DNA of 64,000 nt, taken from NCBI GenBank assembly GCA_024704765.1, contig JAKMXF010000317.1:248160-312159 (forward strand), given 5' to 3'. The stretch is from Oopsacas minuta. Its lineage: Eukaryota > Animalia > Porifera. This document shows positions 9,034 to 60,391 of this stretch, in pieces (positions within the stretch are counted from its first letter, which is position 1; each line of letters opens with the position of its first letter). Position numbers and translations under genes: made by a program. Under the pieces are notes generated by a model. The model saw only the letters and a program-made list of their open reading frames with translations, searched no databases and had not been told where the DNA came from.

Positions 9034-10361
9034 TAGATGACTACCTCACTGACCTATATCTATATAACCACACTCATATTTATTTAACTATAATAAAAAT
9101 TTTGCCATTATCCGATTATATCAATGCTTTGGTACCATTATTTATGCATATTCAAACTAATGTTCATGTCTATGTCCAAAAATATTTAAATAGTTATGCT
9201 CCCTATATCTTAGCAATATCATGGTCAAAGAACACAAGATCAATATTAGAAACCAGGCTGTAGGGATGTTATTAGGTGGGATGACGCAAAGACGCGTTTG
9301 CAATTTACTTGGAGCATCCTTGCGTACTGTCGGATGATGGTGGACCCAATACCAGAAGGGAATCTCATTGGAAAATAACGTGGTAGAGGACGGAAGGTTT
9401 CCTAATCAAAAATTGGAAAAATCATCATTTCTAAGTCACTAACAAAGAAACACCAATATACAAGAAAATTGTCGAGAAAACTTACGTCTAAGGGTATTAT
9501 AGCATCACATATGACTGTCCAAAGGTATCTCAAGAATTCTATTGGAGCAACTAGTTATAAAAGACCGCTTCAGCCAAAATTATCCGAAAAACAGATTAAA
9601 GATCAGATTTCTTTCTGTGAAGAGAGAGTCAATTGGACTGTTCAAGATTGGGGTATGGTGTTATTTTCTGATGAATCCCCCTGTGAATTATTCCACACAC
9701 CGAATAAACAAATTGATCGTGTATGGGCAAGGGAGAAAGAATCAGTGGCCCCTCAATGAGAAAATTTAATTTTCTTCTAAGATACATGTTTGGGGAATGA
9801 TGTCATACTATGCGATATCAGAACTGCATATTATACCTAAGTCCTTTACAGTTACTGTAAAATATTTTATCGAAGAAATACTGAAGAAGTCTCTGAAGAT
9901 CGCACTAAGGAGGAAAAGGATGACTGGATCTGTTCTAGTCAGAAGATTACTCCCAAACATGTCCAGGTACATCTTTCTGCAGGACGGGGCACCAGCTCAT
10001 AATGCCATAAAGACTCAAGATTGGTGTAAAGACAATCTGAATTCCTTTTGGGAGAAAGGTATTTGGCCAGGCAACTCGCCAGACTTAAACCCAATAGAGA
10101 ATTTATGGGCCATCATCCAAAGCAAAATTAATGAAATAGAAGTAGCAACCAATCTAAATATGCTTGATAAACAGCTGAAACTGGCATGGTCTCAGATTTC
10201 CCCTGAGATTCTCAACAATCTGGTGAGTGGTATGCCCAAAAGGATTAAAACATGTTTCAAATATAAAGGCGGATAGTTAGGAAATTAGATTGGACAGTGA
10301 ATTCATCGAACGTTAATTTATGCATATTTTTTCTGTAAGTCATCAATTATGTTACACCCTG

Positions 10362-10470
10362 TAAGTAATGAGCTCTAACTATAAATACAAATCAATACAA
10401 ATACCCATACAGAGAGATATCAAATTTCAACAATTAAATGAATATAAATAGAATACAGAATATTCCGCCA
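10362..10470. repeat. Orphan copy of the NHL-gene upstream region
   Basis: taagtaatgagctctaactataaa...gagagatatcaaatttc...gaatattccgc matches 14341-14450, 22013-22120 and the reverse complement of 37720-37830. No NHL CDS follows. Confidence 0.8.
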
Positions 10471-10677
10471 TGATTAAAAATAAATTTTCATTGTGTTACA
10501 ATTGGCTTATAATGTTTTTGTTGATATTTTTCAGAGGAAGCTGGATAATTCATAGAATGAATTTTGAAAAAGTGGAAATACTGGCGTTCCGCCGATATTT
10601 TCCACACCTTGTGATTCTAGAATACTGTTTATAACCAATCTATGCAATTCAAAGGCAATTAATCATGTGTGTATATA

Positions 10678-13379: not shown

Positions 13380-13434
13380 TTATTATAAGGAAACATAAAC
13401 AAAAGTATGAATATACTAGTAAAATAGAAAAATA

Positions 13435-14283
13435 TCAAAAAATATTGAGACAATGTAGACCTCCAATACAAACTACAATAACTCTTCCTCTATTATCTAC
13501 TGTAATATCGGTGGGATTAGTTAATGAAATCTTGTGTATCAATTCTAATTGAGAGTTGAAAATAGAAATAGAGTGAGAAGAAAAACCTGTAATAAGAATA
13601 TTGTTAGAGTTGTTAATAAAGAAGAAGTATGGAATATACACCTGTAATTTATATACTCTAGAAATAATACTCTTATGCAGAATAAGATTGTAGTTGTACA
13701 GATGAAGACAAGGATTAGATAGATCTAGAATATAAATGAATTCTTTTGTAAGTTTAACATCAAGAGGAGATTCGAGGTTATCTTGTCCAAACTGTGTTCT
13801 GAAAGTAAGTTCTTTGGACAGTATCTGAATACGATTATTATTAGAGTCACATATGTATACCTCTCCGTTAGATTCATTGAATGTCAGACCAAGAGGATCA
13901 TCAAATTCTAATTCTCCTTTCCCAGGTTTGCCTATTATAGAAATAAACTTCCCATTCACTTGATAATTCAGAATACAGTCGCTAATCTGTGAAATTATAA
14001 TTCTATCTCTACATATAGCTAACCCATTTGGATGATACATCTTTCCTTCTCCTTCCTCATCTCCAAATTTATACATAATCTTACCATTACAATCGAATAC
14101 TTTCACACAATTATTCAAGTAATCTGCTACATATATATCTCCAGTAGAATTATCAATAGTCACTCCTTGTGGTCTATAAAGATTTTCTAGCCCCCTTCCC
14201 CTTTTACAAACACTGACTATAGGTTGTATCTTGCTCTTATAGTCGACAGAGAATATTCTCTCCAAAGGACTAGCTGTAGCCAT
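13435..14283 (-). CDS. NHL-repeat protein (propeller only), 282 aa
   Basis: LYRPQGVTID...IYVADYLNNCVKVFD, FDDPLGLTFN...YICDSNNNRIQI repeats. Paralogue of 37885-38727 and 21097-21983. Confidence 0.9.
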   Translation of the reverse strand: MATASPLERIFSVDYKSKIQPIVSVCKRGRGLENLYRPQGVTIDNSTGDIYVADYLNNCVKVFDCNGKIMYKFGDEEGEGKMYHPNGLAICRDRIIISQISDCILNYQVNGKFISIIGKPGKGELEFDDPLGLTFNESNGEVYICDSNNNRIQILSKELTFRTQFGQDNLESPLDVKLTKEFIYILDLSNPCLHLYNYNLILHKSIISRVYKLQVYIPYFFFINNSNNILITGFSSHSISIFNSQLELIHKISLTNPTDITVDNRGRVIVVCIGGLHCLNIF

Positions 14284-14778
14284 TAGTTCTGTTCTGTAAC
14301 TATGAAATACTTCAAATAATATAACTTATCTATATGACTATAAGTAATGAGCTCTAACTATAAATTCAAATCAACACAAATACCTATACAGAGAGATATC
14401 AAATTTCTACAATTAAATGAATATAAGTAGAATACAGAATATTCCGCTATTCTTATATTAATATTTGATCCAGTAGTCCTAACTTGTCCTCCCATGCGAT
14501 ACATAGAGCCACTTAAGGTTTGAAATGGGAATTTCTTTGGGATTTCTCACATGGGAATCGTTCCTATTTCCCGCAAGATATTCATAGGATTCCTTCTCAT
14601 TCCTAAGTCAACCCGAGGGACGCCTCCACGGGGGGCATAGTGGGCAATCCCCCCCTGGCAAGATCTCGTGCCACAGGTCATCCCTTGGCTCAATATGCAA
14701 ACTCTAAATTTCGCCTCCCTTTGCTCGCATAACAATTAGAAATGTCAACTCATGGGAATATGCAAATGTAACTAAAGG

Positions 14779-15483
14779 TCAATTATCAATATTAGAAATA
14801 TAACTAGTAACAAATTCTGTAATCTTGTTACGAATAACTATAGTAGCTTCTAGAGAGTTAAAAGTGGAGTTCAAGTGATGGGAGGAAGTTATCCGTCTGC
14901 GGTATGCCTCCCATTCCTGTGGTTTTTCTCCCTTAATTTAGTGGTTCTGTAGGTCGATGGAGAGGTTCGACAAAACGATATAGTGCGATGGTGCATTAAG
15001 GAGCTTAGCTCCCTTAACTTCGAGAAGTGGGGGACTTGGATAGCAAATGGCGTTCCATTGATGTAATGGTACTGCCCCTGTGAACTCATCAAATTTAACA
15101 ACTCGTTCGAACGAGTATCTGTCAAAATAGCGGTCTCCAGGAGGTTTATTGTAGAATGATTGTCCGAGTCCACGCAAGTTGTTTGAGTCGTAGTAGTTTT
15201 TCCAGTCCTGTGGAGCCCCACTTATACAACACTTGGGCTTGGGCTGCGTACTTTGAGATTGACTGGATGAACCTGTACTCTTCTGGCTGCTCCCAGATGA
15301 GATCAAAAGAAGATGCTCCGTCGACGAGTCGCTGATAAATATTACGCTTTCTTTGAACGGCGGGGGGAGATCTTCTTGGGATTTGGTAACCCGTGGGGAA
15401 TTTGCCCACTGGTCATACGACGAGCCCTTTCGAGTATTGGCAATGGCAGCATTGACATGACAAGGGGAACAGGGTCCTGACAT
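14779..15483 (-). pseudogene. rep: Endogenous CRESS-DNA virus (circovirus-like) Rep gene, copy 1, frameshifted
   Basis: Stitching three frames gives IYQRLVDGASSFDLIWEQPEEYRF (oligomerisation-like) - VLYKWGSTG(T)GKTTT (Walker A) - FYNKPPGDRYFDRYSFERVVKFDEF (Walker B) - LLEVKG - YIVLSN (motif C) - WEAYRRRITS (Arg finger). This is colinear with the circovirus Rep pattern YWKP..KWWDGY.GEEVVVIDDF...VETKG...ILITSN...EALYRRITS. Confidence 0.85.
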
Positions 15484-15797
15484 AAGTTACGGACATGAGT
15501 AGTATTTTCGAGTATAATCATAGCCGTAAGGGAGTACGATAATTCGAGTGGGGTAACTCATTTTATAGATTTACAAGCCAAAAGTTTCGCATACTTACTC
15601 ATATATTAGGAAGGGGACTACTGATAACTTGGGCGGGACTATGCTCAAATATCACCACAGGGAGATTAATGAAACATTTAGGAAGAACTATGCATGTTGA
15701 ATTAAAAGAGAGCTTTGTACTTCGTAGTATTGATGGATAATGAATTCAGAATCCCACGACACCGTAATACCTCGAATAATATCCGGGGCCGCCCGCG

Positions 15798-15852
15798 GGA
15801 AAGGAGTCTCACTAGTTCCCATATTATATGGGAACTAGTGAGACTCCTTTCC
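15798..15852. other. Perfect 23-bp-stem hairpin upstream of rep (candidate viral origin stem-loop)
   Basis: GGAAAGGAGTCTCACTAGTTCCC-ATATTATAT-GGGAACTAGTGAGACTCCTTTCC. A slightly mutated copy lies at 36656-36709. Confidence 0.9.
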
Positions 15853-16199
15853 AGCCAAAGAGAGAAGGGAACGAAAGATGTATCCAGATTATATCACCGA
15901 AGATTAGATCCCTGAATATTGAATTGCCATAATCATTTTGATTCTCTGGCCTTCTTGAGAGTGAAATATCAGGAAGTGCAACACTAAAGTAACATGTATG
16001 CACTGGGCATTACAGGGCTGTAGGAAGTTAAGCCAAACGATTTTGTAGATATCGTTTTCCGAAGTATGTTAATGCAAATACACACATGACCTAATATATT
16101 AATACTTAACATACATGATAGAAGTTGATAGAAGTTTTGAAATTTGAATCACAGGTACCCCTCAATGTGACAAATGTACTGACAGCATGATTCTGACTA

Positions 16200-17446
16200 A
16201 AAGCTAACTCATTATGCAACTATTACGTCATCATGACTGTACAAACATTCAAAATTTTCCAAATTCGAAAGTTTTAGAATTTCTTATACATGAAGCATGA
16301 AGTACAGAGATTACTAACCAAAAGCCACGTAAGAGCTCGAGCATTACCACAGAAGGCCATTTAATAGGATTTGGAAGAACCATACAGTCAAGGGACAAAA
16401 GTATTCGACCACACAAATATATTGTCATAAATTGCATACTCTTTCCCGCTCCTATATATACTGTGTAGTCTATATTCGTAGCTGCAGTCTAGTAGTTTGC
16501 ATAGAATATCATATGTTTTCAACTTTTCAAAAAATGTTTTCGATTTACACTCTTTGAAGGTGTTAATTAATAATAATTATTAGATTGTTATTGATAGTCA
16601 AAATATGTGGTAATTCAAAACCTATTAAGAATCAAAAATTTCTAACTTGATATTTGAATTCTACATAGGCGAGTTACCCCAGATACAAATTTCCAATGGG
16701 ATTGAACAATTTTTACCAAAGTTATAGAAAAATTTCAATTTGTGCCACTTTTGCAAAAGTGACACAGGTGGCAGGAAAAGCGCCACTACAAGGAAATCAA
16801 CTAGGGTTATGAGGAATAAGTCAAAGTAATATTTTCGAATGATATGACTATGCTAACCCTTGAATTCCAAAATAACCTATTAGTTGCGGCCACTTGTGCC
16901 ACCTTGGGCAAATGTGGCACAAATTGCACAAATTGAAATTCTTCTATAACTTTGGTAAAATTGTTGAATCCCATTAAAAATTTGAATTTGTGGTAACTCG
17001 CCTACGTGGAACCCAAATATCAAGTCAGAAATTATAGATTCTTAATAGGTTTTGAATTACCACATATTTTGATTATCAATAATTATCTAATAATAATTAA
17101 TAATTAACACCTTCAAAATGTGTGAATCGAAAATATTTTTCGAAATTCTTGAAAACCATGTTATTCTATGCAAATTACTAGATTGCAGCTATGAATATAG
17201 ACTACACAATATATAGGAGCGGGAAAGAGTATACAATTTATGACAATATTTGTGTGGTCGAATACTTTTGTCTCTTGACTGTAGATATTAAAAATTCACA
17301 AAAATTAACCTCGAGGTACGTAGTGCTGAGTATATCCCGTCATATAGATGCCAAAAGCACTGACAAATATAGTTGTTTCATACATTTGTTAAAATAAGGG
17401 ACAAGTTAAAGGATATATCTGCCCTAGCAAAGCGAAGCCCGCTAGT
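16200..17446 (+). repeat. Dispersed repeat with a Helitron-like 3' end (gcgaagcccgctagt), interrupted by a foldback MITE; uninterrupted relative at about 48290-48600
   Basis: ttactaaccaaaagccacgtaa...ttaccac and aaaattaacc..gagg.acgtagtg are shared with 48390-48520. Confidence 0.6.
16385..17281. mobile_element. Foldback Tc1-like MITE with about 360-bp TIRs (copy 1)
   Basis: TA|cagtcaagggacaaaagtattcg...cttgactg|TA. Long arms surround a core of about 190 bp that is the reverse complement of the core at 59540-59725. Confidence 0.9.
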
Positions 17447-20310: not shown

Positions 20311-20347
20311 ATTACAAAAATACAATCCAAGTTTCGTCGTTATTCGT

Positions 20348-21000
20348 GACGAAACTTGGATTGTATTTTCTGAACCTCTGCGTAAGTAACAAAGGAAATC
20401 GTGGCTCCCAAAAGGTTCTTATCCCCTCGGAAAGGCACGTTCGGACTTCCGAGACGATAAGGTTCTCTACAGCATATTTTTGATGCGTATGAGCAAGTGA
20501 CTCAAATTACTGTGCCTAAAGGAGAACGACTCAATGGAGAATTTTACGCAGATAAATGCATGAGAGAAGTCGAGAAAGTCTATTAAATACGACGTCCGCG
20601 TACTGAAATTCGAGGAATCAAAGTACTCCACGATAAAGCCAGACCTCATGTTTCAAAATACGTTAGGGGAATCATTGAGGATATCGAATTTGAAACGATA
20701 GAACATCCTCCGTATTCCCCAGATCTATCACCTTGTGTTTTTTGGCTATTTTCTGAGCTGAAAAAACATCTCGGAGGACAGCTATTTCATACCCGACAAG
20801 AGCTAGGAAACGGAATTTACAACCTCAATTCAGTGGACAGAGACGAGTACTAGAATAACATTTTCGAAATGGGTTGAAAGGCTACAATTATGCATAGATG
20901 TGGAGGGGGGATATTTCGAACATTTTATGTAGAAATTTGATTAGTAAGTTGTTGTAGTGTCAAGATATTAAACAAAGAGGGAACTTTTTGAATGCCCTAA
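20348..21000 (+). mobile_element. 3' half of a mariner element
   Basis: DETW at the left break, HDKARPH, EHPPYSPDLSPC.FWLF, and a right TIR (gaactttttgaatgccct). Confidence 0.8.
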
Positions 21001-21096
21001 GTTCATAATATGGGAAGAATGTAGTTGGTTCAAATGTAACAAGTGAGTTATTCTAAAGGAAACACAAACGAGTGGATGATATTAGCAAAATAGAAA

Positions 21097-21983
21097 TTAC
21101 AAACAAAAATTGAGACAATATAGACCTAGATTACCAACTACAATAATTCTTCCTCTGTTATCTACTGTAATACCGGTAGGACAAGGTAATGAAATCTTGT
21201 GTATCAATTCTATTTGAGAGTTGAAAATAGAAATAGAGCTAGTAGGATAATCTGTAATGAGAATATTGTTAGAATTGTCAACATGGAAGAACAATGGAGA
21301 AAGCAGCTGGAATCCATCTCCTCTATAAATCACACTCTTATGTAGAATATGATTGTAATTGTACAGATGAAGACAAGGATTATTAGAATGATCAAGAATA
21401 TAAATGAATTTTTTGAGAGTTTAATATCAAGAGGGTATTTGAGTTTATCTTGTCCAAAATGTGTCTTGTAGGTAAGTTCTTTGGACAGTATCTGAATACG
21501 ATTATTACCAGAATCACATATGAATATCTCTCCGTTAGATTCATCGAATGTCAGACTACTAGGATCCTCAAATTCCAATTCTCCTTTCTCAGGATCCCCT
21601 ATTCTAGAAACAAACTCTCCATCAAGTTGATAAATCAGAATATAGTTGCTCCGATGTGTAATTAGAATTCTATTTAGAATTATAGCTAACCCATTTGGAC
21701 GTTTCATCTTTCCTTCTCCTTCCTCACTTCCAAATTTAAACATAATCTGACCATTATTATCGAATGCTTTCACACAATTCTTCCAACTATCTGCTACATA
21801 GATATCTCCTGTGGTATTATCAATAGTCACTGCTTTAGATCCGCAGAGATTTTCTAGCCCCTCTCCCCATTTACAAACACTGATTCTAGGTTGTATCTTG
21901 CTCTTATAGTCTACAGAGAATATCCTCTCTAAAGGATTAGCTGTAGCCATTAGTTCAGTTCTGTAACTAGAATAATGAAACAA
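21097..21983 (-). pseudogene. NHL-repeat paralogue with a 1-bp frameshift
   Basis: Same N-terminus (MATANPLERIFSVDYKSKIQP). A 1-nt loss in the A-run near 21410-21420 (AAA GAA TTC in paralogues) splits the ORF, and the C-terminal blades continue in 21097-21333. Confidence 0.8.
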
Positions 21984-24900
21984 TTCAAATAATATAACTT
22001 ATCTATATGACTATAAGTAATGAGCTCTAACAAAAAAATTCAAATCAACACAGAGACCTATACAGAGAGATATCAAATTTCTACAATTAAATGAATGGAA
22101 ATAGAATTGAGTATATTCCGCCATGCTCTAATATTCTTATATTTAAAACTACACCACAAATACAATAGTAATAACCAACTCAAATTCCAAAAACGTGTTC
22201 ACTTCAATTGTTTATTTGACCGACTTTCTGTATTGCTAGAGAAAAAACTTTGTTATTATTCGAAAGTATAGCGTTTGTGGATTACGAAAATGTCGTCAGA
22301 ATTGTAAAATGTGTGATGACATAGCATTGAGGTTTTGAAAATTTTTCCATTCCTGTCAACTATAATGTGTTATTTGACTGGCTTCTCATTATTATTTTGA
22401 TATAAAATTTCTTCTACCTACTATTGAGTATTGGTGGATTATGTGTTTAAAATTTCTTTCAAAAATATTATTTACTTTTTGAAATATTTTATTTTGAAAA
22501 ATTCAAAGAAGTTAGACTAGAGTCACTTCAGTTGCTATTTGACTCACTTATACTCATCAGATTTAAACGAAATTAGTATCATTGGAAAGAGCAGATTTGA
22601 ACGTTTTAAGTAATATGTTTGTATTTTAAAAACCTTTACTTTTAGTTACTTTTTTAGTGAAAGTTTTTAGTGCCACGACTCCCTTGAATTTACCCACCTA
22701 AAAGTCAGAATTCTATTCTGAAATTATATATGCATACTTTAGTGATATGGATGTTCATGAAAGTTAAATTTCATTAAAAATATTAACAAATCGCGGAGCT
22801 AGAGGAATTCAAATTTTAAGGCGGGAGTTAGAGTGGTAGGGGATGAATCACATTCTACATAAAGTAGGGTCTCTTCAAACTTATGTTTCTCACCCTAAAT
22901 CTGACTGAATTTCAATTATTTTTAGGCTAATCGATAGTTGAGACATAGACGTTTATTACAATATATTTTCGGGGAACGCTACAAATTATCACCAGTAAAG
23001 CCCGCAAAACTCGATAAATTCTCAGGTTTTTGTGAATTACGAATTCTAACTTTGAAATCAATTCTTGAAGTTATTTCTCTTCAGAACCCCTTCAAAATTT
23101 ATAGATACCTTCTTTCGTATCTTATAATTCAATTTCCTTAAAAAACAACAGAGGGTCGCTAGTACTTTTTTTTAACATTTGGTGGTAATATATTTTGAAG
23201 GGTTCATTTTCATTTTGAGTCATGTTAAACTTCATTCTTGCGCATACAAGTAAACACGTACGTGCCTATTAACTGTATGTAGAGTGACTAGAGTCTTTGC
23301 TAATTCAAAATTACAATGTAACATGAATATATGTAAATTAATAGTATAGTTTGGTTATAGATTAAGAGTTGTGTTATATCGCGGTAATTTCGAAAAGTGA
23401 CAAGGTAGAGTGATGTTAATGGTGGAACATGGGTCACCAATGGTAACCCATGACCCATCTGACACATCATACACGCGGCCCATGACCAATTGACCCATTA
23501 CCGGTATAGGATCAGATATTGGTTGATACGTTATCCGAGATTCTTCAGTACAACAAGATTTCCTCCAAATACAAATTAGAAAACTTGTATTCGTTGTATC
23601 AAAATAGCATATTCTTAGAACTGCCTCAAAATATGACAAATCACATATTTGAGTCTGTCCTAAAATGGTTGACTAAGTATGTTAGTATGTCTATATAAAA
23701 TAGACATACTAACATATATGTATAGTGTATATATATATATATACATGTGATTTCTGCTGTTCATACCTTTAGAAAATAAGACACCAAATTGAGCATGTGC
23801 ACTGACACCTAGTTGCTGCACCTGATATTTGAAATTGTTCTAATCTGTATTTTCCACACCTTTTGACACCTCTGTATGTTAGCCTAACCAGAATGTAGGG
23901 TTTTACAATTAGGCAAAATGTATAAAACTAATTCTGGCGGAGTGTTTGGATTAAAATTAGCATTGTAATGTATTTGTGTTGAAATAGACTGCAATTCATT
24001 GGCAGATACATTCTATTAAATATATATACACTGATTTATCATATAATTAATCGTATTTTCACACCTTTTAGTGAACATTTCAAAATTATCCTACAGCTTC
24101 CACTTGTTAAATAGGGGTAAACGGGGATGTAGAATTCAATTTTAACATTTATAAATGTCTAACAAGATTAGTAAAATTCAATTTTATTTATATTTGCTAA
24201 AATGGATATTTAGTAGAATAATATAGTTTCAATAATCCACTAAAATTAATTCGGGAAAATTTAAGTCAGCACAGACGGTGCCATGATTCGGCTGCATGTA
24301 TAGCCGTATTTTAGTAGGCAATGCCACAATTAATTATTATAGGTTCAGCATGTATTAATCAATAATTAAACAGTTAGTGGATTCAATATAAATGGATCAG
24401 TAATGTGAGGTGTTTCAATATAATTCAAAATATTGCATAATATATGAGCCCTACTATTCATAATAGGCCAAGATGCAAACACTTGGTCTATACGTATATA
24501 ATTAATGAATTCTCAAAAGCAAACGAAGAGCGCTAGTACAGAGGAATTAACCAGGAAATGCAAGAGTTAAACAATTTTGTACTCTTTTTAGCCTAAATAA
24601 TGTTATATGATATTCATACACAAAGTGTCCAACCCTCACAGTATCATTTATCTATCCCGATTCCCGACGTATTTCTCCCTATTTAACCCCCATATCAACT
24701 TTGATAATTCAATATAAATAGGTCGTTAATAATATTGTATGGATATTGGATAATGAAGGATATTTTGTTAAAATATGGGAGTTAACAATTGCCATTATGG
24801 ATTGATTTCTGATTTTGAAAACATATGATTATTGACAAGCATTGAATAACTACTTAGAAATTCGAATATATGCTATATACAAAATTGATTATCCATAGCC

Positions 24901-32890: not shown

Positions 32891-35800
32891 CTAATTCCTG
32901 TGTTTCATGTTGTGAATATGCCAACTAATTTGGACTCGTAAACTATTATCAATACTTTGTTGTATTAATGCCATAAAATGAGAAGATGCTTCATCTGAAG
33001 ATAGATTTGGCGTTAATACATCTTTCAGATATGCAATGTCACTCTCACTGCGTAATTCAGGCATTCCAGTATATTTCATCATTGTAAAGAGAGTAATAAA
33101 CAAACTAGAATGTTTTCGAATAATTTGGTAAGCATCGACACACACTTTGGTAAAATATTTAAAATTATCACAACCAACTCCGCCTAGAACATGTATGAAA
33201 TCTGGTGTAAGAATAAAAGAAACGGGTTCCCTATCAATGCCGAATTTCCTTTTACGGTTACCCAAAAAATGTCCGAAATCAATATGAAACAAATTACCGT
33301 CTTCACAAACCATAATGTTGTCATTATGCCTATCTCCGATTCCCAAAATATAAGTAGCTACGCAATAACCTGCGCAAGAGTACAGAAATTTCTCTTTGGC
33401 CTTGTTTAGTTGCTCTTCTTCAGGGTTTAAATTTTGCAGCCAATTTAAAAGCACTTCTTTTTGAAAAGCTTCCAAAATATTGACTTTGGCTTCCCTCTGA
33501 ATGTTGCATACAGTGACAGCGCATTGTATAATTTCTATTATTCCCTCTTCAAATCCAGTAGAGAGGCAGCCATAAGGTATAAGGTGTAAATCTAATCCAT
33601 TTACCAACCAAATATTCTCCATTATTCGGAGCATTTGAATGATAAGCATATCTTGCCGTAGATCATCTCCAATTTTAACCAGGATCTTAATATTAGTAAA
33701 TTTGCTGAACGAATCGTTATTAAGGAACTCCAGCCATAAAGGCTTTTTCTTCGAATCCATAATTTTGACTTTAGAAACATCAACTTTATTAACAGATACA
33801 AGGGGATCATAAAAGGGGCAGAATTTTTCGGGAAGTTGAATTTGGGAAATATGATTGCGTATGTTTTCAACAGTATTAACCGTATCGTCGAGGAATTGAA
33901 AATTATACATCACTTTCCTATAGTTTTCTGTTACATTTTTAATAAAACTGACTTGTGAACTTAAACAGGATAGTAATTCGGAATCACAACCTTTCAGGTA
34001 CGCTTCTAATAAGATAGAAAATCTTTCTCTATATTGGCACGTTTCTATCTCAGAACGTAAATACCAAAAATAATAATGCCCAAATACTCTACAAGATAGA
34101 GCACGGTCTAGAAGTAGCTGGGACAACGGATTATCGTGAAAACATTCAAATTTGAGAACTTGAACTAGTTGAGGCAAATATAGGATAAGATCGCCATTTT
34201 TCATCGATTCAAGATACTTTGCTCCTAAATTTCTGACTTTCGCATCCGCGAATGTATAGCTCAATAAATTTAGAGCAATATCCAGAGTAATTGGAGACCA
34301 TCTGGAAAGTAAGTAATGACATTGTCCAATTTTGACAGGATCAGCCCAATTAATACTAAGTAGGTACATTGGAAGGGCGTAAGGCCTCTGGCTACAATAA
34401 AATGAATACTTTTGGAGAGTATCTTTTTCAGCACTTGTTAGAGTAGAAAAATGACCCTTTGATAATATACTTTCAATAATACATGACTCAGCTCCTGGAT
34501 CTAATTCAGGAGCAACAGTTTCATCAGTAAAAGAATCTATACGATATTTACATTCTACAGGATGTATATAGTCATCAAATTCTAATATTAGGATGGCAGA
34601 TTTTGAATTCTCTGGGTTAATAGTAGGAGATCCTGCAGTCTTTAAGTCAACACCGCTTTTCGCCCCATATAAATAATTTAAATCTGCATTGTTATTTCGG
34701 TTGTTTATTTCATCACTTGGCCATAGATCTAATTTCTTAATCCCAGTCTGGAGAATTTCTCTGTAATCAAATACCTGAAAATTTACAGATGACAAGATAA
34801 TATCTTTTGAAACTGTTGGGCAAGGTAAGTTTTCAGAATGCAAGACATTCTGATATTTTTCGCAAGTTCCTTTTAACCTAAAGTGTATGCGTGCTTCTCT
34901 TGGCAGATTTCTAGCTGGAATGCAAAATTGTGTCCATTCATTCCATCTTGGGTAATCAGAAATCGCCACATTATTAGTTCGTTTAGATTCGCACAATAAA
35001 ATCCCCCCATGCAATAGAAAAATTTCCATATATATATATGTGATGCCAGGAACAAAAGTGTGTAGATGATCAATACCATAAATTCGAATACGAAAAAAAT
35101 TTGGAATCTGATACAATGCAATATTGGCAACCTGAGAATGATGTTGTTCAGCTGGACTCTGGACACCAGAAATATTTGGAATATTCTCTTCACTAATATT
35201 GCAAGTTGAAGGAGAAAATGTAAAATTTTCTTTTGGTATTGCAATAAATTCAAGTATATTTTTTTCATTAATAATAGTTTTTTGTATACAAGAAAGGTAT
35301 AATAGAGGTTCCTTTCCGTGTAAAAAGTTTACCTTATGAAAAGTACGAAGGACAAATTGTTTGGAAGTAATTGTAGGTAAACCAAGTTTGTCAAAAAATT
35401 GTTCCAAAAGTATGTCTGGTGAAACAATATGTAAATTTATCTCCAGAATCTTTGTTCTGTAATCATTGTATACCTTAACATGACGTATACAAGGTGTGCT
35501 ATCAAAGAGATTGATGGTATTTGTTAAATATTGGCATTTGAAAACAATATGGATCCCTCTTTTGAATCGATCTTTTTCGAATATTATCAAACTTTCTTCG
35601 AGAAAAAGATATTTCGCTATTGTTTGTCAGATCAAAATTGTACAATCCAAAGGAGATAAGTGAACCAATAATTTGATCAGAGCGCCTTAGTTCATCAGAA
35701 ATAGCAGGATAAGAGCATTCTTCAATTTCATCTGTATCCACACATTTAAACAAGTTACTTTGTAACCATAATTCGATTTTGCAGTTAGAACGGAGCATTT

Positions 35801-36179: not shown

Positions 36180-36514
36180 TCACTAATTTTAGTTGGAAGG
36201 AAAAACCAGTTAACATCTATACTATTAACTTTAATTAGGAGCGCCCTCATCGTACTTCGTTTTTTGGCAAACGCCACTGTGCATCTCCCTAAAGGAGAGG
36301 AACTAATCGCCAAACGAGAAATAGAAGGATAGTCCGGGCTTATGGCGTATTGGCATCCTCTAAACAATAAGGAATATTACATAATATGGAAATTGTGTAA
36401 TTTGTTCAAATATAACAAAATAGTTATCCTAAAGGAAACATATACAAAAGTATGAATACTAGTAAAATAGAAAAATATCAAAAAATATCAAAAAATATTG
36501 AGATGATGTAGACC
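36180..36514 (-). repeat. NHL 3' end (GLHHLNIF*) plus 3' flank, truncated
   Basis: Matches 12560-12830 joined to 13377-13460, without the Helitron-like insertion. Confidence 0.75.
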
Positions 36515-36915
36515 ATCACTTAAGTGTTGCACATCCTGATATTTTACTCTTAAGAAGGCAAGAGTATCAAAATGATTATTGCAATTCAATATTCAGGGAT
36601 TTAATCTTCGGTGATATAATCTGGATACATCTTTCGTTCCCTTCTCTCTTTGGCTGGAAGGAATCTCACTAGTTCCCATATAATTTGGGAACTAGTGAGA
36701 CTCCTTTCCCGCGGGCGGCCCCGGATATTATTCGAGGTATTACGGTGTCGTGGGATTCTGAATTCATTATCCATCAATACTACAAAGTACAAAACTCTCT
36801 TTTAATTCAGCATCCATGGTCCTTCCTAAATGTTTCAATATTCTCCTCTGTGGTGATATTTGAGCTTAGTTCCGCTCAATATATCAGTAGTCCCCTTCCC
36901 AATATATGAGTAAGT

Positions 36916-37347
36916 GGGACTGGAAAAACAACTACGCCTCAAACAACTTTGCGTGGACTCGGACAATCATTCTACAATAAACCTCCTGGAGACCGCTGTT
37001 TTGACGGGTACTCGTTCGAACGAGTTGTTAAATTTGATGAGTTCACAGGGGCAGTACCATTACATCAATGGAACGCCGTTTGCTATCCAAGTCCCCCACT
37101 TCTCGAAGTTAAGGGAGCTAAGCTCCTTAATGCAGCATCGCACTATATCGTTTTGTCGAACCTCTCCATCGACCTATAGAACCACCAAATTAAGGGAGAA
37201 AAGCCACAGGAATGGGAGGCATACCGCAGACGGATAACTTCCTCCCATCACTTGAACCCCACTCCTAACTCTCTAGAAGCTACTATAGTTATTCGTAACA
37301 AGATTACAGAATTTGTTACTAGTTATATTTCTAATATTGATAATTGA
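36916..37347 (+). pseudogene. rep: Endogenous CRESS Rep helicase domain, copy 2
   Basis: One frame reads GTGKTTTPQTTLRGLGQSFYNKPPGDRCFDGYSFERVVKFDEFTG...LLEVKG...YIVLSNLSIDL*NHQIKGEKPQEWEAYRRRITS...DN*. Confidence 0.87.
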
Positions 37348-37884: not shown

Positions 37885-38727
37885 ATGGCTACAGCTAATC
37901 CTTTGGAGAGAATATTCTCTGTCGACTATAAGAGCAAGATACAACCTATAGTCAGTGTTTGTAAAAGGGGAAGGGGGCTAGAAAATCTTTATAGACCACA
38001 AGGAGTGACTATTGATAATTCTACTGGAGATATATATGTAGCAGATTACTTGAATAATTGTGTGAAAGTATTCGATTGTAATGGTAAGATTATGTATAAA
38101 TTTGGAGATGAGGAAGGAGAAGGAAAGTTGTATCGTCCAAATGGGTTAGCTATATGTAGAGATAGAATTATAATTTCACAGATTAGCGACTGTATTCTGA
38201 ATTATCAAGTGAATGGGAAGTTTATTTCTATAATAGGGAAACCTGGGAAAGGAGAATTGGAATTTAATAATCCTCGTGGTCTGGCATTTAATGAAGCTAA
38301 CGGAGAGTTATACATATGTGACTCTAATAATAATCGTATTCAGATACTGTCCCAGGAACTTACATACAAGACACAGTTTGGACAAGATAACCTCGAATCT
38401 CCTCTTGATGTTCAACTTACAAAAGAATTTATTTATATTCTAGATAAATCTATTCCTTGTTTTCATTTGTACAACTACAATCTCATTCTACATAAGAGTA
38501 TTATTTCTAGAGGATATAAATTACAGGTGTCTATTCCATATTTCTTCTATATTGACAATTCTAATAATATTCTTATTACAGATTATTCTTCTAACTCTAT
38601 TTCTATTTTCAACTCTCAATTAGAATTGATATACAAGATTTCATTAATTAATCCCACCGGTATTACAGTAGATAATAGAGGAAGAGTTATTGTAGTTTGT
38701 AATAGAGGTCATCTCAATATTTTTTGA
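37885..38727 (+). CDS. NHL-repeat protein (propeller only), 280 aa
   Basis: Intact ORF and close paralogue of 13435-14283. Confidence 0.9.
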   Translation: MATANPLERIFSVDYKSKIQPIVSVCKRGRGLENLYRPQGVTIDNSTGDIYVADYLNNCVKVFDCNGKIMYKFGDEEGEGKLYRPNGLAICRDRIIISQISDCILNYQVNGKFISIIGKPGKGELEFNNPRGLAFNEANGELYICDSNNNRIQILSQELTYKTQFGQDNLESPLDVQLTKEFIYILDKSIPCFHLYNYNLILHKSIISRGYKLQVSIPYFFYIDNSNNILITDYSSNSISIFNSQLELIYKISLINPTGITVDNRGRVIVVCNRGHLNIF

Positions 38728-38779
38728 TATTTTTCTATTTTACTAGTATTCATACTTTTGTATATGTTTCCTTTAGGAT

Positions 38780-41473
38780 CAGGGTTCTATCTAGGATTTT
38801 AAATTTGGGGGGGAAGCTTTGAAATCCTTAGTACCCAATTATCAAAATATTATAACCTTGAAGTAAACACCAAACATTTAATCTAATTCTTAATAATGAA
38901 GATTTCTATCGTTAGTAAAACATGAAAGGGTCGCTCATAAATTGATTTTTCTAATTTTCATTCCTTTATAATGCTCCAATACTGCCTCTAAATTTTCATC
39001 AGATAGGTGATCGGAACCTTCAATACATATGCGCATACAATAATCAAGTGTCTCTTCACTCATTCGGCTGCGAAGTCTCGTTTTTATTAATTTCATATTG
39101 CTGAAACTCCTTTCGACTGTGGCTGTTGTCACTGGTAATACTTCCAAAATAGCGGCTATCTTTGCCAAGTTTGGAAATGCAGCATATATCTCTCCATTCC
39201 CCAGCAGTCTTGAGAGTACAAATTGTAAGGACCTACCTTTGTACTGTAGGAAAATTAAGCGTCGAAACAATTTCCACTCTGACTCAGTTTCTTTAGCTTC
39301 GATGTCAGGCTGTGATATACCTTCATCTCCTCCTACATTGATCCTTTGTTCTACACTATAAAAATCCGTGAGTGTCTTAATCTGTTCCATTCCGTACTTT
39401 GATAATTCTTCTTCTGTCCAGGAAGATGGCGAGGGTCAAAAACAGACATGGCTGAAATGAGTTCAGTAGACTCCATCCGGACATTAATATGATCTATGAC
39501 ACTTTGGAGGTATGGTCGATACACCTTGTGAAGAAATTCACTCTTCTCTTCTTCCAATACCACGATGTGTTTCTCTCCTAATTGAGCATCATCAGTAAAA
39601 ACCAAAGAATGTTCCTTGAACCATGTGCTGCTTGTTACATCTTCTTTGAGCTCCAACAGCCGTTTAGTAGTACTAGCAACCATCGATGGCACACTCGCAA
39701 GATCAATATCTTTGGCTTGTAGACTTCCTTGCAATTTCGCTACGATATGAAGAACATCTGATAGCATGTAAATACATGCGACAGTCTTGTACTTCAATAA
39801 GAGAGTTGCAATTCCATGTGATTCTGCATCCCCAGTTTCTGCGTATATCTCTTCAAATGTACTGACCAAAGCTGGTAAAATCCGTCGCACAACAGACACA
39901 GCTCTCTCACGGGCTAACCACCGAGTATCACTAGGCTTCTGCATTTTGATTTCAGGAGCCTGAAGTTCAGCTTGAATCTCAGCAAGTTTCTCAGCTTTTT
40001 TGGGAGAAAAGTGAAAAGCCTTCCAGATTGTTAATAGTGTACCCAAAACTCTCTTCACTACTGTATGTTCTGATGCAGCATTTAATACAGCAAGTTGAAG
40101 CTTATGGCAGCGACAGTGCACATAGATAGAGCTTGGTGCATGTAATCTTAGCCGTATTTGAACACCACTTCTGTGACCCGACATAGTATTTGTACCATCA
40201 AAACCAAGTCCACGCATCTTATCAAAACAAATGTCTTTGGAATGAAGAAAAGTTCGAAGGTAACAAGCGATCGCTTGAGCATTTTTCTCCTTCGCATGCA
40301 AAATTCCAAGAAAATGTTCTACTGGTTTATTATCTTCTATTCAACGTGCACATACTGACAACTCTTCTTGTGATGCTACATCCGTACTTTCATCTGCCAT
40401 TAATGAATAATATGGGCTAGCACTGAGACTGGTGATGATCCTCTTCTCGAGTACATTGCTAATACTTGAGAGAAGTTCCACTATTGTGGTATATGATTCA
40501 TATGTCGCATTGTGTGGACACTTCTCTCTGTGAGATTTCAGTATGATGCCCCATTCTCAATTTGTAAAGTAATGAGGTTTTCAAATGTAGTTGTATGGGG
40601 GATATGATGCTTAACCAAGAAATATAAGGATCGGATAAGCTTTTTCATAATGTCACGGTTCTGTTTCTTCTCCTCCGCAGTGGCTGCTTACAATTGTTCC
40701 ATTACATTACCATGTTCCTCTGTTGATTGAGACATAACCATCTTTCGATCGCTGCTGCGTGCCAATCAGATTTCTCATGTTGTATTAGCAAACTTTTCGC
40801 CTTCACCCAATTGTTTATAGGTCTTGTCACCCATGCACCTCTCGCTTGTACCGATGATTTACCATGGACCTTACAAATCGTACACACCATACCATTTTGG
40901 GATGAATCGTAGTCCATCCAAGTATATTCATTCTTCCAAGTAGGATTATAAACTAAGTTGTCCTTGTAGGCTCGCATTTTTTTGGCTGTTTTAGAAGCGC
41001 ATGGAGTAGAAACAATCGTATCTTCCTCTGGTGGTTGTGGTTCAGACTCAGATATATTGTTGCAATCCGAAATATTTCTTTTAGTTCCTCGAATGATAAC
41101 AAATTTGTCCATGTGGTAACACTGGGTTAATCAATTATTACCTATGTGAAGTTAACAAAAAGAATTTTTTCCGCTGTATTATACCTCAAGAATTCGTACA
41201 TCACTAATATATAGGCGGCTGGATAGTGGGAAGCTGTACTTTCCAACATATGTTATTATTTCGCAGTTGCAAATTGTATGAAATGTGATTCAGGTTTCCC
41301 ACATATTATTTATTTACACTTCAAATAGTATTTTCACAATGAATTGATATTCTAATAATTTATCCATTGAATAATATATTCGATTAATAGTACATTTTAT
41401 AAGATTTTTGGGGGGGAAGTTGAAGAGTTTGGGGAGGAAGCTTCCCCCCACCCCCCCAGTAGATAGAACCCTG
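38780..41473 (-). mobile_element. hAT transposon (ZMYM1/PRKRIR-like transposase with TTF-type zinc finger), frameshifted
   Basis: 14-bp TIRs cagggttctatcta. ORFs carry MVCTICK...QHEKSDWH, GFDGTNTMSG, HCRCHKLQL, SDTRWL and PVTTATVERSFS. The 8-bp flanks do not match. Confidence 0.9.
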
Positions 41474-55480: not shown

Positions 55481-56791
55481 TCACATTTTCATGTTGTCAT
55501 GCGATGAGTTGGATGCTCGGGGTCCAGAGTAAGGAGATTGATGAGAACGTTGCATGTCGTGTTGGTAGAAAGGTGAAGGCGTGCTAGAATAATCCTGGCT
55601 TTGAAGAGGTGGAATATGAGGTGTATTGTCTGGTTGGGGAATGTAACTAGGATGAAATGGAATAGGGGTATTATGAGGGTACTGAGAGTAAGAGGAGTTA
55701 GAAGAGTAATTAATATCACTAGGCATGTCAGTTATATTATGAAGCTGGTAATTTGGTACGCCACTTGCAGTGAGGAATTGAGTAGGCTGATGATAGTAAG
55801 TTTCGAAATTAGTGTCCATTGGTATTTCTTGTCGAGAATAAAGAGTAGGTGGCATTGTAAAAGTGAAATCGAAAGGGAGACTCTGATCACTTGGATTTTT
55901 TTTTCTCCGGATACAAACCTTAGCATTAACTTCACATTGTCCGTGACTACGACATTGGGGAGTTTTGAAAACAATCACATGCTGATGGTATACATCAGTA
56001 CCTGAAAAGGTGCCATTCCCTATGATTTTTTCACCTTGCTCTGAATAGAAGATAACCTCTATATCATGCCTCTCAATCTTATCACAAATCAGGAACACTT
56101 CTTCTCCGCCCTCCATACTACCACTTATACGACTTATCCTGTGTATCTTGAGAGGAGCAGTGGCAGATGCTTTGCAGTCATAAATAGGATTAGAATACTC
56201 CCTCAGTTGCACGATTTGGCCGTTGCAAGCAACATAGGCTCGGAAACACAGACGAACAACATTGTTAGCAGCTGACATAGATCCAGCATGATTCACAAAA
56301 ACTTGTAAATTAGGAATTTCTTTCTTAAACCGGGACACGTCGAATTGAGTATGATGTTTAGTCCATCCTGTCATCATCCCTATGTATTGAGATATCCCTT
56401 GCTGGCGCAATAACTCACATTGAGCTAATTTACAACCAAGAATTTCATTCTTATCTTGAATCTTAGTATGAAGTATGCTAATTCCTTGAATTGAGTGAAT
56501 AACATCTCCTCTATTGTTAGGTCTCAATTCTTCTAAGTATTCTCCATTGAATACGCTCTTCCCATGCAGATTGTGCATATGCACTTCTTCAGAATCCTCT
56601 GCACATAGTGAGACATGGAGGTAGACCGTTGTATTAGGAAGACATTGTTCGATCTTTATTGTAGGGAATGTCTTCTTGTCTTTTGTGCTTGTCGCTCCTG
56701 TGATAGGTCCATGCGCTGAACCTTCACAAAGATATCTGAATCTATAACCCTTCTGGAGAGGTTGTTCACAAATGGAAAGTACTGGATTCAT
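55481..56791 (-). CDS. NF-kB/Rel-family transcription factor (RHD + IPT + P/Q/S/Y-rich tail, no ankyrin repeats)
   Basis: EQP.QKGYRFRYLCEGSAHG, VVRLCFRAY, S.PIYDCKA...LKIHRIS..SGS.EGGEEVFLICDKIERHDIEV.F and VYHQHVIVFKTP. Confidence 0.93.
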   Translation of the reverse strand: MNPVLSICEQPLQKGYRFRYLCEGSAHGPITGATSTKDKKTFPTIKIEQCLPNTTVYLHVSLCAEDSEEVHMHNLHGKSVFNGEYLEELRPNNRGDVIHSIQGISILHTKIQDKNEILGCKLAQCELLRQQGISQYIGMMTGWTKHHTQFDVSRFKKEIPNLQVFVNHAGSMSAANNVVRLCFRAYVACNGQIVQLREYSNPIYDCKASATAPLKIHRISRISGSMEGGEEVFLICDKIERHDIEVIFYSEQGEKIIGNGTFSGTDVYHQHVIVFKTPQCRSHGQCEVNAKVCIRRKKNPSDQSLPFDFTFTMPPTLYSRQEIPMDTNFETYYHQPTQFLTASGVPNYQLHNITDMPSDINYSSNSSYSQYPHNTPIPFHPSYIPQPDNTPHIPPLQSQDYSSTPSPFYQHDMQRSHQSPYSGPRASNSSHDNMKM

Positions 56792-59149: not shown

Positions 59150-59181
59150 TATAGATAATCAAGAAACATTGTACGTATATA

Positions 59182-60083
59182 CAGTTAAGGGACAAAAGTA
59201 TTCGACCACACAAATATATTGTCATAAATTGTATACTCTTTCCCGTTCCTATACACTGAATAGTCTATATTCGTAGCTGCAATCTAGTAATTTGCATAGA
59301 ATAACATGTTTTTCAAGAATTTCAAAAAAATATTTTCGATTTACACTTTTTGAAGGTGTTAATTATTAATAATTATTAGATAATTATTGATAATCAAAAT
59401 ATGTGGTAATTCAAAACCTATTAAGAATCTATAATTTCTGACATGATATTTGAATTCTACTTAGGCGAGTTACCCCAGAATAAATTTTCAATGGGATTGA
59501 ACAATTTTTGCCAGAGTTATAGATGAATTTCAATTTGTGCCATTTGTGCCACCTTTTGCCCAAGGGGCACAAGTGGCCGTTACCAAGAGGTTATTTTGTA
59601 ATTCAAGGGTTAGCATAGTCATATAATCCGAAAATATTACTATGACTTATTCCTCCTAACCCTAGTTGATTTCCTTGTAGTGGCGCTTTTTCCAGCCACC
59701 AGTGTCACTTTTTGCAACAAGTGGCACAAATTGAAATTCTTCTATAACTTTGGTAAAAATTGTTGAATCCCATTGGAAATTTTAATCTGGGGTAACTCGC
59801 CTAAGTAGAATTCAAATATCAAGTCAGAAATTATAGATTCTTAATAGGCTTTGAATTACCACATATTTTGATTATCAATAATTATCTAATAAGTATTAAT
59901 AATTAACACCTTCAAAAAGTGTAAATCGAAAATATTTTTTTGAAATTCTTGAAAAACATGTTATTCTATGCAAATTACTAGATTGCAGCTACGAATATAG
60001 ACTATACAATATATAGGAGCGGGAAAGAGTATACAATTTATGACAATATATTTGTGTGGTCGAATACTTTTGTCCCTTAACTG
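59182..60083. mobile_element. Foldback Tc1-like MITE with about 360-bp TIRs (copy 2)
   Basis: Arms 59182-59542 and 59722-60083 are near-perfect inverted repeats, with a TA duplication. Confidence 0.92.
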
Positions 60084-60391
60084 TAGATAATATGGTAGTA
60101 TTCAGTTAATACATGCTAATCCTTGCATCACGTGTTCTTATAACCGGTATCTCCTGTATATCACTCGTGTATTGTTGTTTACTTGTATAGAAATATATAG
60201 CTTACTTCCTTCAAAACTTATGTATTAAGTCAATAACTGTTCTGGTTAATATTTGAACAAATACAATAGCATCGATAATACAGATGTTAACTACCTATCT
60301 GAGAACTAATTAGGTATAGTAGATGTTAGTACATAAAAGTTACAGTTACTACGTCCTAAAGTTATGTGCGCTACATTTGTTCGTTTAACTA

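Follow-up and report, generated by a model that had tools for sequence, protein, structure and literature searches.

Rep fossils in invertebrate genomes are already known. A screen of 675 animal genomes described Rep-only elements in molluscs, arthropods, a cnidarian and a tapeworm, and its table of new elements also includes fish (PMC6069186); the words "sponge" and "Porifera" are absent from the main text of that article. Endogenous Rep elements have been used to confirm hosts (PMC9615429). A Circoviridae-affiliated contig is described from a glass-sponge assembly (PMC10280926), with no integrated Rep in the parts of the article covered and no match in two supplementary files. A literature search, mostly without subscription papers, found no report of a CRESS or Rep fossil from a sponge; absence from print is not established by it. 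The Rep of Circoviridae (PCV2; PDB 7lar, 8xms) is composed of a HUQ endonuclease, a linker and an SF3 helicase. Replitrons are multi-copy elements of eukaryotes whose Rep is akin to that of CRESS viruses; in the parts of the source covered, they are described as having no helicase and short terminal direct repeats (PMC10288648). Helitrons combine a Y2 Rep with an SF1 helicase.

The locus described herein lies in a window of 64,000 nt (the whole stretch of DNA that was analysed), which is part of a 385,847-nt NCBI contig and contains NF-kB, RPL14 and IGFBP-domain genes as well as Tc1, pogo and hAT transposons. The host is an animal, possibly a sponge, as the DNA looks poor in introns and rich in NHL genes. 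On the minus strand, from 15459 to 14779, the locus contains a broken CRESS-type Rep whose remaining part spans the motif III region, the SF3 helicase and the C terminus typical of the family. Host genes and transposons lie on both sides, and the combination of more than 3 kb of host flank with frameshifts and stops is that of an endogenous viral element. Like the elements of invertebrates covered in PMC6069186, it is a Rep-only fragment without cap, with long host flanks, in multiple copies and far from named genera. It differs from them in that each copy is accompanied by a host NHL gene and that intact relatives exist at ∼65% identity. The close clade of relatives from ENA and the duplication of Rep together with NHL lift this fossil above the routine.

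The first-pass annotation had joined three open reading frames (15146–15409, 14889–15221 and 14938–15483) into one Rep. They are located as described, and an alignment tolerant of frameshifts, against a profile built from nine intact relatives, yields 284 bits over 15459 to 14788 in four frame pieces, colinear over profile positions 161–397. The stop proposed there is present at 14938–14940, whereas the proposed two 1-nt frameshifts are in fact three, at ∼15364, ∼15206 and ∼15180. Piece 1 (15367–15459, minus strand) covers the motif III region, profile 161–197, with 22.3 bits (reached by 0/60 shuffles) and 11/30 residues identical to the relative P0004; the catalytic motif is unreadable in the aligned frame. 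Piece 2 (15209–15364, minus strand) extends through the linker/oligomerisation region as far as the beginning of Walker A, with 60.5 bits and 36/51 residues identical to P0080; its linker lacks about seven codons in frame. Piece 3 (15180–15206, minus strand) is the second half of Walker A, enclosed by two frameshifts, and 7/7 residues are identical to P0005 and P0080. Piece 4 (14779–15177, minus strand; 165 bits) carries the remainder of the SF3 helicase to the C terminus, including the stop; it matches P0002 at E 5e-42 and P0004 at 54% over 139 columns. Walker B, B′, motif C and the Arg finger follow one another in the order that had been proposed, but Walker A is split over two frames and the W/FDGY stretch is altered.

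All four pieces align singly and colinearly to intact relatives. The linker and helicase pieces outscore 200/200 shuffles against each of the three relatives tested, and the 9-residue Walker A piece outscores 199–200 of 200. The motif III piece outscores 200/200 shuffles against P0004 and 197/200 against P0080, and is at chance level against P0005. Among 30 columns invariant in the nine relatives, 28 are kept in this copy and 29 in the second copy described below, which suggests that the decay is young in terms of substitutions. Upstream of the remnant, a motif I scan of the flank gives a score reached by 35/40 shuffles and a motif II scan one reached by 3/40; the stretch 15460–15990, the upstream part of the duplicated unit by copy comparison, shows no significant homology to Rep motif I/II or to capsids. 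The 181-aa ORF 14938–15483 is on record as a protein; since it consists mostly of out-of-frame viral DNA, it is likely an annotation artefact.

On its own, the helicase piece reaches 19 bits with Pfam RNA_helicase, under the cut-off of 21.5; hence, the identification rests on its relatives. With the piece as query (X at its stop), a search of 1.84 billion representatives returned 54 matches at E ≤0.001, which include the window's own ORF and two that look spurious (P0051 and P0069). Three proteins of 374–385 aa match at E ∼1e-41 among the 144 candidates obtained with the same query. The intact relatives contain motifs I–III and all SF3 motifs, with a single Tyr in motif III, and like PCV2 Rep they combine HUQ endonuclease, linker and helicase in a single protein. 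When 11 full-length relatives were scanned, the Pfam test proposed earlier was passed by 11/11 for RNA_helicase and by four for Viral_Rep, with sub-cut-off scores in the other seven.

A profile of the relatives finds PCV2 Rep as its best solved-structure match; among 25 matches, PCV2 Rep stands at E 4e-22, versus 1e-3 for picornaviral 2C and 5e-3 or worse for cellular proteins. The AlphaFold model of P0004 (mean pLDDT 75) has the Reps of Vientovirus and PCV2 as its first matches, and the named rows within the top 50 of a BFVD search are Reps at 18–25% identity. In the Atlas, the relatives fall in Cressdnaviricota clusters, with neighbours 79–95% viral in five of six rows and a bacterial sixth row. 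The remnant is a CRESS-DNA-virus-type Rep embedded in an animal chromosome, as had been claimed, and neither a picornaviral 2C nor a cellular protein of the AAA+ class; profile, PCV2 match, tree and host flanks agree in this. It is likewise closer to CRESS Reps than to parvoviral ATPases. From the earlier label "circovirus-like," the shared Rep architecture with its motif order can be retained and nothing beyond it. Compared with PCV2 Rep, identity in the ATPase domain is ∼30%, the relatives measure 374–416 aa with a long N-terminal extension modelled at low confidence, and neither an origin of the circovirus type nor a capsid was found at the remnant. By sequence, membership in Circoviridae looks unlikely. 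Nor is the Helitron combination matched, since the helicase is of the SF3 type and motif III of the relatives has only one Tyr.

The helicase tree was computed from 104 columns and 69 of 86 rows, with 17 rows omitted as too short; beforehand, 13 near-duplicate or error-ridden rows had been removed. The two copies of the window pair at UFBoot 100 and are sister to P0003/P0004 at 99, within a clade of ENA Reps. Containing no labelled family references, the tree gives their position relative to this clade only. The helicase identity of the copies is 64–67% to P0003/P0004 and 45–67% to the whole clade (P0002–P0008, P0025–P0028 and P0080), whose members share the same linker and the same C-terminal end. 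The clade is mostly full-length, and some members look frameshifted. Several of its ENA records hold near-identical Reps: three on a record of 10,943 nt and two each on records of 8,326, 11,096 and 10,674 nt; a more distant relative has six on one record of 12,408 nt. These equal-length multi-Rep records are likely rolling-circle concatemers of small circular genomes; tandem integrated arrays also fit. Two more distant Reps, P0052 and P0054, lie on ENA contigs of 523 and 171 kb and are possibly integrated copies in other hosts.

Close relatives are absent from the IMG/VR, JGI, GTDB, plasmid and phage searches, among which the pattern-seeded scans can miss relatives. IMG/VR scans with alignments gave relatives at 22–33% only (6 and 44 loci), none above 33%, and the JGI scan with alignment gave distant relatives only, within the same range (five loci). 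When the helicase piece was used directly as a pattern against IMG/VR, one locus was returned, with a 10-residue match. No Rep match was found in 72,556 plasmids, and GTDB genomes gave weak matches only (E 2e-5 or worse; 14/15 loci over ∼40 residues). The phage collection contains distant Reps at 23–24% identity in 5.7- to 10-kb records named "bajarodino virus."

Beyond the first-pass annotation, the remnant reaches into the motif III region and has close relatives, and it is part of a duplicated Rep–NHL unit with a hairpin, a second copy in the window and further copies elsewhere. The second Rep copy (36913–37347, plus strand; 187 bits) runs from a remnant of Walker A to the C terminus, has its own stop at 37177–37179 and lacks the 384 nt that match 15209–15592. 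The two Rep copies are 97% identical. Herein, the duplicated unit of ∼2.6 kb is defined by 13387–15990 matching 38773–36518, minus this deletion in copy 2, and in both copies Rep precedes an intact NHL gene by ∼500 nt. The copies differ at 13/427 nt in Rep, 8/498 in the spacer, 43/840 in NHL and 24/389 upstream. The Rep helicase shows seven nonsynonymous and two synonymous changes (pN/pS 1.02; small numbers, at nine changes), and NHL shows 27 and 13 (pN/pS 0.55). On these nine changes, the Rep copies appear to drift neutrally. Their stops differ in position, and they are separated by a 1-nt gap at 15175, which suggests that only copy 1 has the break near 15180. Across the Walker A break, upstream of which copy 2 keeps only a few letters, the copies align without a gap; this break appears common to both.

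At the far edge of the unit, 36426–36488 (minus strand) is an inverted duplicate of the NHL 3′ tail of copy 2, with 63/63 positions complementary to 38717–38779. It was considered as a transposon end and rejected, as its sequence belongs to the NHL tail and passes over into the ordinary flank downstream of NHL; it is likely a rearrangement scar. The right edge of copy 2 abuts a hAT-like element, a broken transposon with a dimerisation domain and a zinc finger (38780–41130) that adjoins the NHL tail and whose other end was looked for and not found.

A near-perfect hairpin with 30-nt arms is located upstream of Rep at 15795–15855 (z = −9.8, 0/200 shuffles). It is present in both copies, the second, at 36658–36712 by copy comparison, being less perfect. 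It is almost loopless, and no nonanucleotide with fewer than two mismatches to five origin nonamers was found. A 24-nt piece of its arm has no exact match in IMG/VR, and the seven Rfam matches, all over the hairpin, are far below the gathering score. The GC-rich stretch 14590–14710 was rejected as an origin because it folds no better than chance (39/200 shuffles). A promoter and terminator scan, built for bacteria, gave chance level. No capsid was detected in the flanks against 285 ORFs from 51 loci, a set without the capsids of the close relatives; three matches at E 0.001–0.009 have 22–25 bits.

Downstream of Rep, the spacer between its stop and the NHL upstream region (14460–14778) is missing from a Rep-less NHL paralogue (21046–22135), whose match stops at 14459; the spacer is possibly viral noncoding DNA. 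The intact host NHL-repeat gene of copy 1 (13435–14283, minus strand; 282 aa, Pfam NHL E 7.7e-24) is recorded as a protein in NCBI/UniRef. Its counterpart at copy 2 (37885–38727, plus strand; 280 aa) is likewise intact, with 89% protein identity to the first. The window contains four intronless NHL-repeat genes (1095–2369, 13435–14283, 21109–21950 and 37885–38727), of which one is frameshifted at ∼21411; the two that lie outside the duplicated unit have no adjoining Rep. A stray piece of the NHL upstream region lies at 10358–10475. The stretch 15860–15990 was considered as a decayed inverted NHL gene and rejected, with no tblastn or nhmmer match. The NHL family looks highly expanded in this genome. 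Further features of the window are an intronless NF-kB-type (Rel homology) gene at 55481–56791, a 911-codon open frame at 32891–35626 that is PI3 kinase–like by eye, a perfect 22-nt inverted repeat with a 9-nt loop at 20317–20369 and a ∼900-nt MITE-like element with long terminal inverted repeats in two copies 91% alike (16383–17283 and 59176–60092), which has very high summed depth in the sequencing runs.

The stretch is present in four runs, which all come from a single sample in a single study and may themselves have served for the assembly. Among the matches listed, contigs with zero differences bridge the 5′ edge (15281–15753 and 15281–15717) and cross the break at ∼15364, and the deletion of copy 2 is seen as a 15208–15593 joint in one run. 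Contigs listed across 14541–14902 carry 15–20 differences over 170–190 nt and are more diverged than copy 2, several contigs of ∼90% identity cover the spacer, and 2-nt insertions occur at 15333–15334, inside the part missing from copy 2. Hence, further, more diverged Rep copies exist beyond the two in the window. Record 30 of run X4 (15593–16165) has the deletion and the letters of copy 2 in 15627–15723 and is copy 1-like beyond; it represents either a third copy of mosaic make-up or an assembly of two copies into one contig.

The locus is probably best explained as a dead, 5′-truncated CRESS-type Rep that was captured once in the germ line and then spread passively by duplication of the NHL gene. 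A fragment of a viral replication intermediate would have been inserted into host DNA on the upstream side of an NHL gene, ∼500 nt away from it, with end-joining repair as the most likely route. Rep function would have been lost early after capture, since the Walker A break appears common to both copies. The remnant would then have been copied as cargo of NHL-locus duplications, its copies later gathering separate stops, frameshifts and deletions. It yields no working Rep and is not mobile by itself. With neither a capsid nor an origin nonanucleotide nor motif I/II detected, the viral nature of the donor, as opposed to a plasmid-like or satellite one, is inferred from Rep alone. The good preservation of the helicase also fits a recently working element. 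A reading in which the hairpin–Rep–NHL unit is a virus-derived cassette kept and multiplied by the host, either through Rep-driven rolling-circle copying of the NHL gene or through small RNAs from the remnant and its hairpin against a lineage still infecting the animal, is unlikely. If true, it would be the first such host–virus pair in a sponge, with the ENA clade as its living members.

That the hairpin–Rep–spacer–NHL unit is a decayed rolling-circle mobile element, which arose from a CRESS Rep, took up the NHL gene and aided the expansion of its family, is improbable. Duplication of the entire unit, the long hairpin upstream of Rep, the further copies, the little-decayed helicase and the several Reps per 8- to 12-kb record of the relatives, if these are tandem integrated arrays, would all suit it. 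However, both copies are broken and apparently drifting neutrally, the two other NHL genes of the window have no Rep alongside, and the 63-nt inverted repeat is no terminal repeat. Moreover, Replitrons, the known CRESS-related transposons, are described as lacking a helicase in the parts of PMC10288648 covered, whereas in this remnant nothing is better preserved than the helicase, and ends with short direct repeats were not found. A donor of nonviral origin, i.e., a bacterial pCRESS-type plasmid, an inovirus Rep or a cellular ATPase, is very improbable: a Rep by itself cannot separate viruses from pCRESS plasmids, and the distant Reps of the "bajarodino virus" records in the phage collection point in the same direction, but the plasmid search was empty, the GTDB matches are weak and the Atlas neighbours are predominantly viral in all rows except the bacterial sixth.

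An assembly artefact, or contaminating viral sequence fused to host DNA, deserves hardly any credence. Among the matches listed (32 of ∼19,850 pieces), no contig spans from Rep to the NHL reading frame, and no error-free piece crosses the breaks at ∼15206 and ∼15180 or the stop of copy 1. Against this stand the error-free contigs across the 5′ edge and the break at ∼15364, and a diverged contig (14729–14902, 15 differences) that crosses the 3′ edge. The order Rep–spacer–NHL recurs at a second locus with 2–6% divergence and separate lesions, which makes a chimeric assembly unlikely. It is also quite improbable that the donor virus infected some other eukaryote, be it a symbiont, a parasite or a prey item, and that its DNA reached the germ line of this animal, in which case the remnant would not mark the animal as the host of the virus. 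A filter feeder, if the host is one, takes up much foreign DNA. On the other side, a virus that replicates in the germ-line nucleus has the simplest route into it. Rep fossils routinely serve as host evidence and, in the parts of the source covered, agreed with independent host predictions in protists (PMC9615429).

The remnant likely identifies this animal as having once been host to a virus lineage. Most metagenomic CRESS viruses have no known host, and a germ-line fossil at ∼65% identity inside the ENA clade gives this clade a likely one. If the host is a sponge, Rep fossils would be extended to a phylum for which the searches found no report, and it would become testable whether Circoviridae-like contigs from sponge samples, such as the one described in the covered parts of PMC10280926, have the sponge itself as their host. 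Its linkage to an expanding NHL family indicates that a dead viral gene can gain copies without mobility.
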